Below, one piece after another: positions 1-10,103 of a stretch of DNA of 10,103 nucleotides. Where the stretch lies: UHGV virus genome UHGV-0293072; one strand, written 5' to 3'. Origin of the DNA: a virus. Made by a program: the position numbers and the translations under genes. How positions within the stretch are numbered: the stretch's first letter is position 1; the number at the start of each line of letters is the position of its first letter. Below the pieces are notes generated by a model. That model was not told the DNA's origin. It saw nothing but the letters and a program-made list of their open reading frames with translations, and made no database searches.

Positions 1-146
1 ACGGCCAGCACGGTGGGGTATTGTATGCGCGGCGCAATATGGTGGCCGGTGGCTATATCAGCGGCGGCCTGACGCCTGACCAGGTCGAACAATCGGTCTT
101 TGATTATCTGCTGTTTGGTGACGTTGCTATCCTGAAAATTCCTTTG

Positions 147-5054: not shown

Positions 5055-5528
5055 ATGAGTGGCCCTAGTTTCAGTATCAGCGGCAAGCCGGTGACGGTGA
5101 CGCCAACAGCGATCACCAACGGCGTGGCGTTCTGGCCCGATCTTGATCTGGCCGAGTTTCAGAAGGTGCGCACGTTGCCCGCTGACCTGCCGCCAGAAAC
5201 GGCAGGCGTGGCCCTGCTGGCCGCCATTGCGGAGGTAAACGACGCGCTGGCCGACGTGGTGACGTACTGGAACGCGAAAGCCTACGAACGGGCCGCAGAT
5301 GTACCGGGTGCAAAGATGGGCGACGAAACCCAATTAAAAGCCCAGTAAAAAAAAGCGGTCTACGCCCGCGCAAAGGCCGATTTACTGGGGGAATTCGCCA
5401 CCATCGGGCGACGTGAATCGCATCCGGGGCAGGAAAGCCAGGACACCCGCGCCAGCCTGCTGGCCGAGGCGGCCAATGTGATGCGAAACATGCTGCGACA
5501 ACCACGCGTTGGGGTGCATCTGATATGA
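5055..5528 (+). pseudogene. Head completion/stabilisation protein (P2 GpL-like) interrupted by an in-frame TAA at 5346-5348
   Basis: ATG 5055 with GAGG 7 nt upstream. The frame is open 5055-5345, hits TAA at 5346-5348, then the same frame stays open for 59 more sense codons (KKAVYARAKADLLGEFATIGRRESHPGQ...RVGVHLI) to TGA 5526-5528, which overlaps the ATG of the next gene. Combined length would be 157 aa, in the size range of GpL. Confidence 0.65.
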
Positions 5529-6001: not shown

Positions 6002-6693
6002 TCCGTGGGGAGCTGAACCAACAACAGCTAAAGCAAATGCGGGAAACGCTGGCAAAAGCTGACCTTCCCCCGCGTAAGCGCCAGCGCCTTTTATGGCGTA
6101 TTGCAAAGCTGGGCATTGTCACAGCGGCAAAACGTCACCAGCGCCAGCAGGCGGCCCCGGACGGTACGCCGTGGGAGCCGCGCAAGCGTGGCAAAGGGAA
6201 AATGTTAAAAGGGCTGCCCAAACTGCTGGCTGTGCGTGAAATGCCGGAGATTCAGGGGGTAAGAATTTACCTCAAGGGCGGGAACTACCTGAACGGGACG
6301 AAGCCCATTGCGGCGGGTCTGGTCGGTGCGGTCCAGCAGGACGGTGCGCGGATCCAGATGAAAGCCAGTAACGCCCCGCGTAAGCCGCAGATTAACCAGC
6401 CCGCGTTACCGCGACAGGCCAAACGGCTGCGGGCGCTGGGCTACAAAACCCGCAAGGGTAAACGATGGGTTAAGCCGTCCAGCAGGCAAATCATGGAAAC
6501 CATGAGCATGGCCCAGGCGGGATTACTGATTCGAAAACTGAAAGGCACACCCTCAAAACGCACATGGACCATTGATATTCCTGGACGCGTTTTTCTGGGG
6601 GTGAGCAATGACGAATTTAACCAAATTATTGCGCGGCAAATGCAGGCAATCGGCTTCGGCTGGGACGTCACCGCGCAGCAAATCAGGGGGTAA
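5998..6693 (+). CDS. Phage virion morphogenesis / tail completion protein (P2 GpS, Mu gpK family)
   Basis: 231-aa basic protein with GTG start preceded by GGTGAGG. Motifs GTPWEPRKRGKG, RKGKRWVKP and IDIPGRVFLGV resemble the recalled W..P..R..G / GKRW / IPARPFL signature of the virion morphogenesis family. Confidence 0.65.
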   Translation: MIRGELNQQQLKQMRETLAKADLPPRKRQRLLWRIAKLGIVTAAKRHQRQQAAPDGTPWEPRKRGKGKMLKGLPKLLAVREMPEIQGVRIYLKGGNYLNGTKPIAAGLVGAVQQDGARIQMKASNAPRKPQINQPALPRQAKRLRALGYKTRKGKRWVKPSSRQIMETMSMAQAGLLIRKLKGTPSKRTWTIDIPGRVFLGVSNDEFNQIIARQMQAIGFGWDVTAQQIRG

Positions 6694-7146
6694 AAATGAC
6701 CTGGCCTACAGTCAACGTCAGTCAGAAAAACCGCTTCAACGGCACAACGAACGACGTCGAGCGCGTCATCCTCTTTGTGGGTTACGGCGACACTAACATC
6801 GGGAAAACCCAGTCGCTGAATACCGGCAGCGATCTGGATAAAGCCCTGGGCGACAAAGACAGCCCGTTAAAAAATATGGTGGCCGCTGCGGCCAATAACG
6901 CCGGACAGAACTGGTTTGCTTACGTGCATGTGCTGGCAGAGCCAGACAAGGGAGCCGAGGGCTACAAACCAGACGAAGACTGGATGAACGCAGTCAAACA
7001 GGCCCAGAGCGTGGCATCCGTGGAAGGGGTTGTCCTGGCATTTGATACCGCCGCCGCGGCCACCATTAACCGCGCAACGGAAATGCGCGTCACCTTACAG
7101 GCCAGTTTTGGGCGTTTTATCTGGTTTGCCCTTGCTGTGGGTGGGC

Positions 7147-7190
7147 CCGAAAAAGACGAAGTCATAATCGTGATACCACATCGGCACGCT
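7147..7190. repeat. Left junction repeats: A (7147-7161, ccgaaaaagacgaag) followed by B (7162-7190, tcataatcgtgataccacatcggcacgct)
   Basis: Exact reverse complements are present at 7454-7468 (A') and 7469-7497 (B'); verified base by base. Confidence 0.9.
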
Positions 7191-7468
7191 GTAGCGGCTT
7201 GCCTGCAAAGACTGCAACACAGCCAGATCAATTTCTGCGCCCGTCCCGTCCACCGGCAGGCCGTCGCGCCCCAGCGCGGTGACTGCACCGGTTGCGACGC
7301 GGGCGGGGCTGTCTGCCACCGTCACCGAACGGTTACACAGGCGACCAACCAGGACGCCGGGTTCGTTACCCCACAGGCGCGGGACCAGTTGCACCCCAGG
7401 CGAGGCAATACCGGCCTGGAGTTCAGCCAGGCGCGTCACATAGTCGCTCCATGCTTCGTCTTTTTCGG
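7162..7468 (-). other. Inverted internal block of the sheath-like gene (coding sense on minus strand)
   Basis: The minus strand reads SEKDE-AWSDYVTRLAELQAGIASPGVQLVPRLWGNEPGVLVGRLCNRSVTVADSPARVATGAVTALGRDGLPVDGTGAEIDLAVLQSLQASRY-SVPMWYHDYD, sharing EKDE with the plus-strand N-terminal fragment and SVPMWYHDYD with the plus-strand C-terminal fragment. Confidence 0.75.
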
Positions 7469-7497
7469 AGCGTGCCGATGTGGTATCACGATTATGA
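7454..7497. repeat. Right junction repeats: A' (7454-7468, cttcgtctttttcgg) followed by B' (7469-7497, agcgtgccgatgtggtatcacgattatga)
   Basis: Reverse complements of A and B at the left junction. The order on the right is A'-B', not B'-A' as a simple 44-bp inverted repeat would give. Confidence 0.9.
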
Positions 7498-7885
7498 CGG
7501 CATCTACTGGGCTGACGGTCGCACCCTGGACGTTGAAGGCGGTGATTATCAGGTGATTGAAAACGTGCGCGTGGTTGATAAAGCCTCCCGCCGCGTCCGT
7601 CTGCGTGCAATCCCTAAAATTGCCGATCGTTCGCTGAACAGTACACCGGGCAGCATTGCCGCGCATGAAACCTATTTCGGCAAGCCGCTGCGTGAAATGG
7701 CGATTTCAACCCAGATCAATGGTGTCGAATTTCCGGGCGAAGTGAAGCCACCAAAAGACGGCGATATCACCATCACCTGGACCAGTAGCGAAGCGGTACA
7801 GATTTACCTTGTGGTTCGACCGTATGAGAGCGCGAAAGAAATCGGCGTCAGCATCGAACTGGACACCTCACTGGAGAGCTAACCA

Positions 7886-8657: not shown

Positions 8658-8982
8658 AAAACAGCAACTTTTCACGGTGATGATCGCCAACCTGATTCAT
8701 TTTGCCGAAGACAAGGGCTATCGCCTGACGTTTGGCGAAGCGTACCGCACACCAGAGCAGGCCGCGATCAACGCAAAAAAAGGGAGTGGCATTGCTAACA
8801 GCCTGCATACCCAGCGCCTGGCCGTGGACTTTAACCTGTTTGTTAACGGCGAATACCAGACCGACAGCGCCGCTTATCGCCCGCTGGGTGAATACTGGGA
8901 ATCCATCGGTGGATCATGGGGTGGCCGTTTCAGTAAGCCGGACGGCAACCATTTCAGTCTTGAGCATAACGGGGTGAGCTGA
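8644..8982 (+). CDS. Endolysin, peptidase M15 family (zinc-dependent cell-wall peptidase)
   Basis: 112 aa with an H-x6-D motif (SLHTQRLAVD) and a second His (GNHFSLEH), consistent with M15 zinc ligands. GGGGGAG Shine-Dalgarno upstream; start overlaps the holin 3' end. Confidence 0.75.
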   Translation: MKLSEKQQLFTVMIANLIHFAEDKGYRLTFGEAYRTPEQAAINAKKGSGIANSLHTQRLAVDFNLFVNGEYQTDSAAYRPLGEYWESIGGSWGGRFSKPDGNHFSLEHNGVS

Positions 8983-9365
8983 TGCGAAATGTGCTGGGTC
9001 TTTTGTTGATTCTGGCCGCTGCTATGTGGGCGGGCTGGCAGGCGCATGACTGGCACGACGCAAAGCTGAAACTCGCTGCCAGCGAAGCGGCAGAACAAAC
9101 GCGCCAGATTGTCGTTGAGGTGACGCGGCAGTCTGGTGAAGCGCTGGAAGCAAAACTCGCGGGGCTTAAAGCCAATGAAATTCATACGGAACGGGTTATC
9201 CGCACGGAAACCATTAAGCCGGTTTTTAGCAACGTTTGTGCTTCTGATGATTACGTCCGGCTGTTCAACGAAAGTGCAGATCAAGCCGAGCGAGAATTAT
9301 CAGGAAAACCAGATGACACTTTGCCCGGTAAGACCACCACGTCTGGCCGGACCGACAGGAAATGA
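8982..9365 (+). CDS. i-spanin (Rz-like)
   Basis: 127 aa with an N-terminal transmembrane anchor (LGLLLILAAAMWAGW) followed by a charged, helical periplasmic domain. ATG overlaps the endolysin stop (TGATG). Contains an embedded +1-frame lipoprotein ORF. Confidence 0.7.
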   Translation: MRNVLGLLLILAAAMWAGWQAHDWHDAKLKLAASEAAEQTRQIVVEVTRQSGEALEAKLAGLKANEIHTERVIRTETIKPVFSNVCASDDYVRLFNESADQAERELSGKPDDTLPGKTTTSGRTDRK

Positions 9366-9471
9366 TTTTGACGCGGCGCTGACAGCCTACCGGCAGATGT
9401 ATACCGACTGCGCCGCCCGACATAACGCCCTAGTGGGCATCATTCGACAACGTAAGGAATTAACACAATGA
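9175..9471 (+). CDS. o-spanin (Rz1-like outer-membrane lipoprotein), embedded in and extending beyond the i-spanin gene
   Basis: +1-frame ORF inside Rz. Signal peptide with lipobox-like TSGC (Cys at 9262-9264), Pro-rich mature part with additional Cys. Start is ambiguous: ATG 9175, or GTG 9136 with GAGGTGA upstream. Its stop TGA 9469-9471 overlaps the next ATG. Confidence 0.6.
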   Translation: MKFIRNGLSARKPLSRFLATFVLLMITSGCSTKVQIKPSENYQENQMTLCPVRPPRLAGPTGNDFDAALTAYRQMYTDCAARHNALVGIIRQRKELTQ

Positions 9472-9737
9472 GTAAACCGAACAAAATCACCATGACCGTG
9501 GCGGGTGTCAATCTGAGCTTTGAGCCGAATAAAACCGCGTTCAATAACCTGATTAACGAAATGACCATGACCAATAAGATTGCGCCAATGGCGACGTATC
9601 TGGGGCGTATCGTTGATGCCGACTGTAAAGAGGCACTTAGCAAGCTGATGGAAGATTATCCGGGTTGCGAAATGCAGATCGTTGAAAAGGTTAACGAGAT
9701 TTACTCCCCCAAACTTGAGATCGAAGTAAAAAACTGA
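9468..9737 (+). CDS. Putative tail assembly chaperone (G-like) with a 3'-terminal -1 slippery site
   Basis: 89-aa ORF with AAGGA Shine-Dalgarno. It ends ...GTA AAA AAC TGA with heptamer A_AAA_AAC in the zero frame, and the -1 frame is open from there to the window end. Position ahead of the presumed tape-measure region fits the conserved chaperone frameshift arrangement. Confidence 0.5.
   Translation: MSKPNKITMTVAGVNLSFEPNKTAFNNLINEMTMTNKIAPMATYLGRIVDADCKEALSKLMEDYPGCEMQIVEKVNEIYSPKLEIEVKN
9728..9734 (+). promoter_or_regulatory. Candidate -1 programmed ribosomal frameshift heptamer A_AAA_AAC
   Basis: Canonical X_XXY_YYZ slippery pattern in the correct phase, 1 nt before the zero-frame stop. 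No downstream pseudoknot or stem-loop was evaluated. Confidence 0.45.
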
Positions 9738-10103
9738 CGGCGCGGGTAGCGGCCATTCGCACGAATGCCCTGGAGCAATACCTTGCCTTGAGCGCGTCCT
9801 CTGCTACGCCTTTGGAACCCACTTCTGCAAGTGCGGCGTTCATCTCATACGCCGGACCCACCACGCCCGCGATGGACTGCGCCACGCCCCAGACAGCCGC
9901 CGCACCGATCCCGATTTTTGTAAAAGACGCCTGCGATTTTTCAGCAAAGCCGGACAACGAAGATGCGATGAAAGGTGCAATGGCGGGCCTGTCCGATATG
10001 GACCTGCCCCGCGTCACCATCGCGGCCAATACCCTGGCGGCAGGCGTCAAGGCCAGCGGCGAAGAGGCAGGCGAATACATCGGTGCGATGGCGTCACGTT
10101 TCA
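9728..10103 (+). CDS. -1 frame extension of the chaperone (GT-like fusion) and/or 5' part of the next tail gene; truncated by the window end
   Basis: The -1 frame has no stop from 9719 to 10103 (over 125 codons). High-quality codon usage from about 9968 (MKGAMAGLSDMDLPRVTIAANTLAAGVKASGEEAGEYIGAMASRF). No good Shine-Dalgarno before the in-frame ATGs at 9872 or 9968, favouring access by frameshifting. Confidence 0.4.

Follow-up and report, generated by a model that had tools for sequence, protein, structure and literature searches.

The right end of the sequence analysed here raises two linked questions: (i) does the tail assembly chaperone gene of this phage end in a programmed −1 frameshift site and (ii) if so, why does the shifted frame run on to the last base of the sequence. 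The stretch in question, called the window below, is the whole 10,103-nt sequence from UHGV virus genome UHGV-0293072.

The phage and its chaperone gene

The window comes from a P2/HP1-like myophage and is ~96% identical to the Salmonella phages SI7, SW3 and SW5 over 94% of its length. The phage belongs to the Peduoviridae, genus Irrigatiovirus; a literature search on SI7 or Irrigatiovirus found no relevant paper. The gene order begins with the large terminase (minus strand), scaffold, capsid, small terminase and head-completion genes, continues with tail completion, sheath and tube, followed by holin, endolysin and spanins, and ends with an 89-aa ‘putative tail assembly chaperone’ and the tape-measure gene. 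The chaperone gene is therefore directly upstream of the tape-measure gene, and the holin, endolysin and spanin genes lie between it and the tube gene.

The chaperone gene is the counterpart of P2 gpE and HP1 orf26. Residues 7–89 of its product match Phage_TAC_10 (PF10963) with E = 1.5e-30 and 105.6 bits, against a gathering cut-off of 25.7. A Shine-Dalgarno sequence, AAGGAA at 9454–9459, is located 8 nt upstream of the ATG, which shares bases with the stop of the upstream spanin ORF (ATGA). An exact-protein look-up places the identical chaperone on 17 public contigs. The features discussed in the following sections are listed in Table 1.

Table 1. Features of the window, in window coordinates; L002 is a closely related contig described in the text
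Feature	Position	Strand	Evidence or remark
Private inverted patch, portal-gene fragment	1–141	−	Equals L002 510–370, minus strand, 100%
Private inverted patch in tail sheath gene	7161–7468	−	15-nt and 30-nt inverted duplications at the ends
Tail assembly chaperone gene, 89 aa	9468–9737	+	Pfam PF10963 Phage_TAC_10, phrog_1214
Slippery heptamer A_AAA_AAC, zero frame	9728–9734	+	Direct reading of the sequence
Retained 5′ part of the −1 extension (E′-like ORF), 19 residues LTARVAAIRTNALEQYLAL	9734–9790	+	Matches the 63-codon −1 ORF of L002 and SI7
Zero-frame stop TGA, abutting the heptamer	9735–9737	+	Overlapping −1-frame codon always Leu (CTG or CTA)
5′ arm of candidate stimulatory stem	9742–9751	+	7 nt after the heptamer; 3′ partner at 9786–9796 disrupted by the breakpoint
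Left breakpoint, E′ sequence to inverted tape-measure sequence	9787–9793		7-nt imperfect similarity
Inverted tape-measure piece, codons 23–81	9788–9963	−	blastn to L002
Tape-measure coding sequence from codon 106	9963–10103	+	Same frame as the chaperone −1 frame

A slippery heptamer at the chaperone stop codon

The chaperone ORF ends in ATC GAA GTA AAA AAC TGA, and our reading agrees with the original prediction that A_AAA_AAC lies in the zero frame directly 5′ of the stop. It agrees as well on the −1 frame, which has a stop at 9716–9718 and is open from 9719 through the last base at 10103, or 123 codons past the shift point. The fusion peptide proposed at the same time, ...EVKK-LTARV, has to be amended. 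In canonical tandem slippage, Asn is decoded first and the shift follows, so that the expected peptide is ...EVKN-LTARV.

By themselves, the motif and the open frame are weak evidence, and the case for the site rests instead on where it lies and on its conservation. The window has two copies of AAAAAAC, where 2.8 are expected. G+C content over the last 370 nt is 62%. The +1 frame, too, has no stop before the window end, and a 129-aa ORF lies on the minus strand. In first-order Markov simulations, a given frame is open over 123 codons in 5.5% of cases.

Conservation of the site across relatives

Loci for comparison were gathered from species-representative genomes (7), from IMG/VR (53) and by exact-protein look-up (10), with SI7 in addition. 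The 61-locus set referred to below consists of those gathered loci, the window counted, in which the chaperone is 52–100% identical. In all 61, the chaperone ends in TAAAAAAC followed immediately by a stop codon; this ending is invariant and the stop itself varies among TGA, TAG and TAA. The −1 ORF is exactly 63 codons long throughout the set, and its own stop lies 1–7 nt before the tape-measure ATG. The exceptions in both respects are the window and L008, a contig that ends first.

The same arrangement is present in seven named phages whose chaperones are 32–56% identical to that of the window. Read directly, HP1, F108, K139, phiO18P, ESSI-2 and YenM_324 have A_AAA_AAC followed by a stop, and PV94 (32% identity) has A_AAA_AAA followed by a stop. 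The ending GTA AAA AAC plus stop is common to HP1, F108, phiO18P, ESSI-2 and YenM_324, and K139 has CTA AAA AAC plus stop. The −1 ORFs of the seven are 60–64 codons long and end at the tape-measure start. Over the intact relatives, the −1 ORF stop precedes the tape-measure ATG by −1 to 13 nt, and it overlaps that ATG in ESSI-2 and YenM_324. A tblastn search with the conceptual fusion gave two-frame matches in all 67 matching phage records.

Eight more distant loci (30–39% identity) have A_AAA_AAG at the homologous V-K-K codons. Their zero-frame stop comes 3 or 7 codons later and their homologous extension is 55–59 codons long. An AAC or AAA heptamer thus always abuts the stop, and an AAG heptamer never does. 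Homologues without the heptamer had been named as evidence that would count against the frameshift; A_AAA_AAC is invariant in the 61 loci and is found in six of the seven named phages.

Sequence comparison therefore supports the interpretation of this locus, in the phage family, as a conserved −1 frameshift of the tail assembly chaperone, and the site appears to have the sequence-level properties of the class that includes lambda G/GT and P2 E/E+E′. The assignment to the conserved chaperone frameshift of tailed phages, as originally made, holds for the family, but not with a naturally very long extension (60–64 codons in every intact relative). The public records inspected for SI7, HP1 and related phages contain no slippage annotation, and we found no protein-level support for the fusion in any member of the phage family.

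Origin of the long open frame

Compared with SI7, the window shows high identity up to ~9790 and apparent divergence beyond, and the remainder was resolved by BLAST. Window positions 9400–9793 match the chaperone gene and the start of the −1 ORF. The most informative relative is L002, a 30.4-kb Logan contig that is 99.8–100% identical to the window block by block and yet is collinear with SI7. L002 is intact: its sheath gene encodes 380 aa and its tape-measure gene 659 aa, and its −1 ORF has 63 codons. Relative to all 11 comparison loci, SI7 included, three blocks of the window (1–141, 7161–7468 and 9787–9963) are inverted in blastn alignments.

The third of these blocks lies within the shifted frame. 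Window 9787–9963 corresponds to L002 10702–10526 on the minus strand (98.3% identity by blastn), and its minus-strand translation contains ...LSGFAEKSQASFTKIGIGAAAVWGVAQSIAGVVGPAYEMNAALAEVGSKGVAEDALK, as in the L002 tape-measure protein. At the left breakpoint, the window reads CTTGAGC, which matches the E′ parent (CCTGCGC) at 5/7 positions and the reverse complement of the tape-measure parent (CTTCAGC) at 6/7. To the right of the block, window 9963–10103 is identical (100%) to L002 10776–10916, and its frame was checked by arithmetic against the L002 tape-measure ATG at 10460. Two segments have been lost. One, of 199 nt, takes in the last 44 codons of the −1 ORF together with the tape-measure ATG and tape-measure codons 1–22; the other, of 73 nt, corresponds to tape-measure codons 82–105.

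As a result, the −1 frame of the window passes from 19 genuine extension codons through 58 antisense codons into true tape-measure codons. It reads into the tape-measure gene because the antisense piece is free of stops in the −1 frame and both joints are in phase. Intact L002 already has an ORF of 85 codons in the same antisense frame. The long open frame is a by-product of a private rearrangement, and not a feature of the frameshift system. The extension that had looked unusually long is not a natural one, since the shifted frame of every intact relative stops after 60–64 codons. That it might run into tape-measure coding sequence is true of the window, but only by way of a private inversion and two deletions. 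The ATGs at 9872 and 9968, originally noted as lacking a convincing Shine-Dalgarno sequence, are not gene starts: 9872 falls within the antisense tape-measure piece and 9968 is internal Met108 of the tape-measure protein.

The −1 extension as a protein

The intact fusion of L002 matches Pfam PF21830 (DUF6890) with E = 4e-21 and 74.9 bits, against a gathering cut-off of 23.6, and the DUF6890 part corresponds to residues 108–151 of the fusion. The −1 extension also matches phrog_7050 (E = 2.6e-24). Both families are labelled as of unknown function, and a literature search for DUF6890, PF21830 and PF10963 found no papers. The −1 product of the window itself has no Pfam match at E ≤ 1 because the DUF6890 part is deleted.

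Nucleotide diversity in the −1 frame is 0.127, 0.090 and 0.356 at the first, second and third codon positions, a pattern that is the same as in the chaperone gene. By this measure, the −1 ORF is under coding-type (purifying) selection. The 36 distinct extension peptides are conserved from the very first codon. In the closest relatives, ATG, GTG and TTG are absent from all 63 extension codons, and expression of their −1 ORF would therefore require a shift from the chaperone frame. An independent start for the downstream ORF had been put forward as a finding that would speak against frameshifting, and these relatives offer none.

A candidate stimulatory stem

An RNAalifold analysis of 17 relatives pairs alignment columns 15–24 with columns 59–69 downstream of the heptamer, with 91.5% of cells paired. 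Two of the pairs show compensatory changes, and the covariation score was reached by 3/500 shuffles. The covariation support for this candidate stem is weak. Folding the region downstream of the heptamer, as had been suggested, gave z = +0.29 for the window and z = −1.85 for intact L002. At the same position, HP1 has a strong fold (z = −2.98) and other members, with z from −1.31 to +0.12, do not; the folds across the family are thus inconsistent and do not establish a stimulatory structure.

An alternative 8-bp helix from a single-sequence fold, pairing columns 19–26 with 65–72, lacks covariation and did not outperform slid controls; it was rejected in favour of the RNAalifold stem. An Rfam scan of 9400–10103 returned only Transposase-2, at 17.9 bits against a gathering score of 42.7 (E = 0.49), and a scan of an intact relative returned nothing at E ≤ 5. 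The Transposase-2 match, below threshold and not reproduced in the intact relative, was treated as due to chance.

Further rearrangements in the window

The other two inverted blocks also damage genes. Beside the inverted portal fragment, the window from 139 onward corresponds to L002 from 716 onward, and 205 nt between the portal fragment and the terminase gene are missing. The inversion in the sheath gene, which is intact (380 aa) in SI7 and in L002–L005, splits it into ORFs 6696–7556 and 7292–7882. In addition, the head-completion gene has a private nonsense codon, Y98* at 5346–5348, together with T95K at 5338. As written, the window sequence cannot encode a viable phage. The junction string ATACCTTGCCTTGAGCGCGTCCTCTGCTACGCC has no exact match in IMG/VR and none in JGI metagenome contigs, and neither the chimeric sheath ORF 6696–7556 nor the truncated head-completion ORF 5055–5348 is on record by exact-protein look-up.

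The strand switches are paired, within 400 nt, and are accompanied by small deletions or duplications. The joints were inspected for pre-existing inverted repeats or long microhomology that might account for a site-specific or repeat-mediated inversion; overlaps there are only 0–3 nt, or an imperfect 7 nt, and switching of an invertase type was rejected on this basis. Candidate causes are template switching during multiple displacement amplification, whose chimeras the lesions resemble, and assembly error; a genuinely defective copy is also possible. We consider it somewhat unlikely that the lesions arose as true mutations, in a prophage or particle that is defective, as opposed to being artefacts of sequencing, amplification or assembly. 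A real origin fits the 100% identity of the blocks to the parent right up to the joints. It also fits the other differences near the joint, which are natural synonymous alleles found in other loci, so that the parent was a real phage variant. Template switching during replication can also give inversions with small duplications or deletions. Against a real origin stand the three paired strand switches within 10 kb together with a nonsense codon and only one further non-synonymous difference (T95K) from an intact phage, where natural decay would normally leave scattered substitutions too. None of the collections searched contains the rearranged form, although absence is no proof of an artefact.

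Chimeras made by multiple displacement amplification typically show inverted joins over short distances, in which sequence between the joined parts is deleted and the overlaps are short (Lasken and Stockwell 2007, PMC1855051), and the E′/tape-measure and portal lesions match this pattern. The window differs from such chimeras in its very short or imperfect overlaps and its paired strand switches, and the sheath lesion differs further in having duplications and not deletions. The frameshift interpretation holds unchanged whether the lesions are real or artefactual. The window serves as a warning. Its unusual open frame was created by a private inversion, the sequence has at least three further lesions, and therefore no gene-level inference from it is trustworthy without the raw reads.

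Proposed mechanism and alternatives

We hold with considerable confidence that the locus is a −1 frameshift site and that the long frame of the window is a by-product of its private rearrangement. In an intact phage, most ribosomes would stop at the TGA and release the 89-aa protein. A minority would move back by one base on A_AAA_AAC while tRNA-Lys occupies the P site and tRNA-Asn the A site; alternatively, P-site slippage may occur with the stop codon still undecoded in the A site. Shifted ribosomes would read 63 more codons, ending 1 nt before the tape-measure ATG, and the product would be a 152-aa fusion (...EVKN-LTARV...) whose C-terminal part is DUF6890. By analogy with lambda G/GT and P2 E/E+E′ (PMC5009743, PMC3091744), the short and long forms may together coat the tape-measure protein, with the extension recruiting the tube protein.

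A low-level ribosomal −1 shift on A_AAA_AAC is the most likely means of reaching the extension. This heptamer is a proven low-efficiency shift site in bacteria, in IS1 (PMC4066793), and it shifts poorly in Escherichia coli compared with A_AAA_AAG (PMC4066793, PMC5009743), which is the best ribosomal shift site in that organism (PMC5009743). A weak heptamer suits a system that needs a minor product. It is also conceivable, if rather doubtful, that HP1-type phages use a distinct −1 signal, in which a poorly re-pairing heptamer is always abutted by the zero-frame stop and slow decoding of that stop, perhaps together with the stem, stimulates the shift and sets the ratio of products. The stop-abutting design is present in 61/61 loci and 7/7 named phages. 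The contrast with A_AAA_AAG is drawn from only two or three independent lineages, and for this reason it may be a historical accident.

Three other readings of the site have to be weighed against a ribosomal shift. Slippage of RNA polymerase on the A6 run, adding one extra A to the mRNA, is quite improbable. The run is present in all family members, and the product of such slippage would be EVKK-LTARV, the peptide given in the original prediction, but the runs known to give efficient slippage by bacterial RNA polymerase are longer than six A's (see also PMC5009743). The X_XXY_YYZ phase is always kept, and distant relatives switch to A_AAA_AAG; this point is not decisive because the conserved V-K-N residues fix the phase as well. 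Still less probable is a separate small gene in the −1 frame, initiated independently of the chaperone, which is how the ORF is annotated in SI7 (HYP90_gp15), F108 (Orf32) and phiO18P (phiO18_37). Extension codon 5 is GTG in many relatives and was chosen as a start by annotators, among them RefSeq for the SI7 ‘hypothetical protein’ HYP90_gp15, but the window and its closest relatives have GTA at this codon, and their ORF has no start codon anywhere. Moreover, the residues LTAR upstream of codon 5 are conserved, and the ORF always opens at the heptamer.

We see hardly any chance that the long −1 frame is itself genuine, with the A_AAA_AAC shift making a chaperone–tape-measure fusion in a functional phage. 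From 9963 on, the frame does coincide with true tape-measure codons, and no stop comes in between. Such a fusion would however be joined by 58 codons that are the antisense of tape-measure codons 23–81, and would lack the tape-measure start, codons 1–22 and 82–105 and the DUF6890 domain. The arrangement occurs in 0 of ~70 relatives, including the one that is 99.8–100% identical, and in the same window the portal gene and the sheath gene are broken and the head-completion gene carries a nonsense codon. A ribosomal shift into an extension of 60–64 codons thus remains the preferred reading for the phage family.

Relation to known frameshift systems

The P2 E/E+E′ frameshift was reportedly described by Christie et al. 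in 2002 and by Xu, Hendrix and Duda in 2004. This programmed −1 frameshift and the general G/GT rule (PMC3091744, PMC5009743) are precedents for the present site. P2, like the window phage, is a Peduoviridae myophage with a small chaperone gene directly upstream of its tape-measure gene, T. Its −1 ORF lacks an initiation codon and stops where T begins, as is likewise the case in the intact relatives here, and its products of 91 and 142 aa compare with 89 and 152 aa. P2 differs in its heptamer, T_TTT_TTG, where the present family has A_AAA_AAC abutting the stop, and in its gene order; here, as in HP1, the lysis cassette lies between the tube and chaperone genes. We detected no homology to P2 gpE or gpE+E′, and a Pfam scan of the fusion at E ≤ 1 returned PF10963, PF21830 and a weak match to DUF6848 only. 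The resemblance to P2 is accordingly one of position and mechanism and not of sequence.

Homologous chaperones and extensions are found in the orf26/orf27 region of Haemophilus phage HP1 and in K139, F108, phiO18P, ESSI-2 and YenM_324, and this HP1 orf26 group is the true family of the site. Genomes of the group are intact, whereas the window is without the 3′ two-thirds of the extension and without the tape-measure start. Lambda G/GT is a further parallel, from a siphovirus with the heptamer G_GGA_AAG and proteins that are unrelated in sequence (PMC5009743). The same heptamer as here, A_AAA_AAC, is used in enterobacteria by IS1 insA-insB′, where the shift is proven, is of low efficiency and has no established stimulator (PMC4066793). 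IS1 differs in that the product is a transposase and not a phage assembly protein, and its stop is not reported as abutting the heptamer. The site in the window is an unannotated example of a well-known kind of frameshift.

Implications for the phage family

The −1 ORF of SI7- and HP1-type phages is currently either unannotated or filed as a separate ‘hypothetical protein’. The best interpretation of DUF6890 and phrog_7050 is that they represent the extension added to the PF10963 chaperone by frameshifting, and with this interpretation the annotation of SI7, HP1 and many prophages would be corrected. That a weak heptamer is so strictly paired with an adjoining stop also poses a small, testable question on how the efficiency of bacterial frameshifting is tuned.

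Inverted patches and point lesions in the window

Two gene segments of the window besides the tape-measure region are inverted relative to L002, the intact collinear Logan contig (see the table below). The joint of the portal-gene fragment sits 8 nt beyond the end of the terminase gene, on the downstream side of its stop codon, and 205 nt, the portal start among them, are lost there. The sheath-gene patch is seen in the window only; it breaks the 380-aa gene into ORFs 6696-7556 and 7292-7882, and the inversion event produced inverted duplications of 15 nt and 30 nt, one at each end.

The head-completion gene, a homologue of P2 gpL, carries T95K (at 5338) and the nonsense change Y98* (TAC to TAA, at 5346-5348). 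Each is a C-to-A change in an A-rich context, and both are absent from all the other loci retrieved; errors in sequencing may explain them, or they may be genuine inactivating mutations. In L003, a contig encoding an identical chaperone, a P2 gpR-like tail gene (6102-6578) is broken into ORFs of 56 and 85 aa, and public assemblies therefore hold further damaged copies of the window phage.

The 129-aa minus-strand ORF over the tape-measure inversion is a by-product of that rearrangement. Its central part encodes tape-measure residues 25-81 in the sense direction; the two flanks are antisense, to the end of the chaperone gene and to the tape-measure gene from codon 106 on.

Coordinates of features in the window and in related loci
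Feature	Locus	Position	Remark
Inverted portal-gene fragment	window	1-141	reverse complement of L002 510-370
Head-completion gene	window	5055-5528	
Inverted sheath-gene segment	window	7161-7468	reverse complement of homologous L002 7724-8031
Rz-like ORF	window	8982-9365	
Second spanin ORF	window	9175-9471	+1 frame, if begun at ATG 9175
129-aa ORF	window	9691-10080	minus strand
A_AAA_AAG	L063	1767	
A_AAA_AAG	L065-L071	1758 (L066)	
-1 extension, "hypothetical protein"	L001 (SI7)	10420-10599	
-1 extension, "hypothetical protein"	L076 (F108)	664-834	
-1 extension, "hypothetical protein"	L074 (phiO18P)	703-846	

The shift site and its annotation

Upstream of the chaperone lies a spanin pair of overlapped architecture. 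Read from ATG 9175, the product of the +1-frame ORF begins with a signal of the lipoprotein type (...FVLLMITSGC). The stop codon of this ORF shares bases with the start codon of the chaperone gene, in the sequence ATGA.

The stop directly adjoins the heptamer in all loci with A_AAA_AAC or A_AAA_AAA, whereas distant chaperone relatives (30-39% identity) use A_AAA_AAG, and there the zero-frame stop is displaced downstream by 3 or 7 codons. An adjacent stop may compensate for a weak heptamer, the contrast being backed by only two or three independent lineages. A match to the Rfam Transposase-2 RNA at 9723-9774, which scores below the cut-off (17.9 against 42.7 bits, E 0.49), was taken as chance, since it is not reproduced in the intact relative L002.

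Public records of SI7, F108 and phiO18P list the -1 extension as a separate protein, with annotated starts at internal, non-conserved GTG or ATG codons; it is unannotated in those of HP1, K139, ESSI-2, YenM_324 and PV94. The frameshift extensions of such phages appear to be the source of Pfam DUF6890 and of phrog_7050 ("unknown function").
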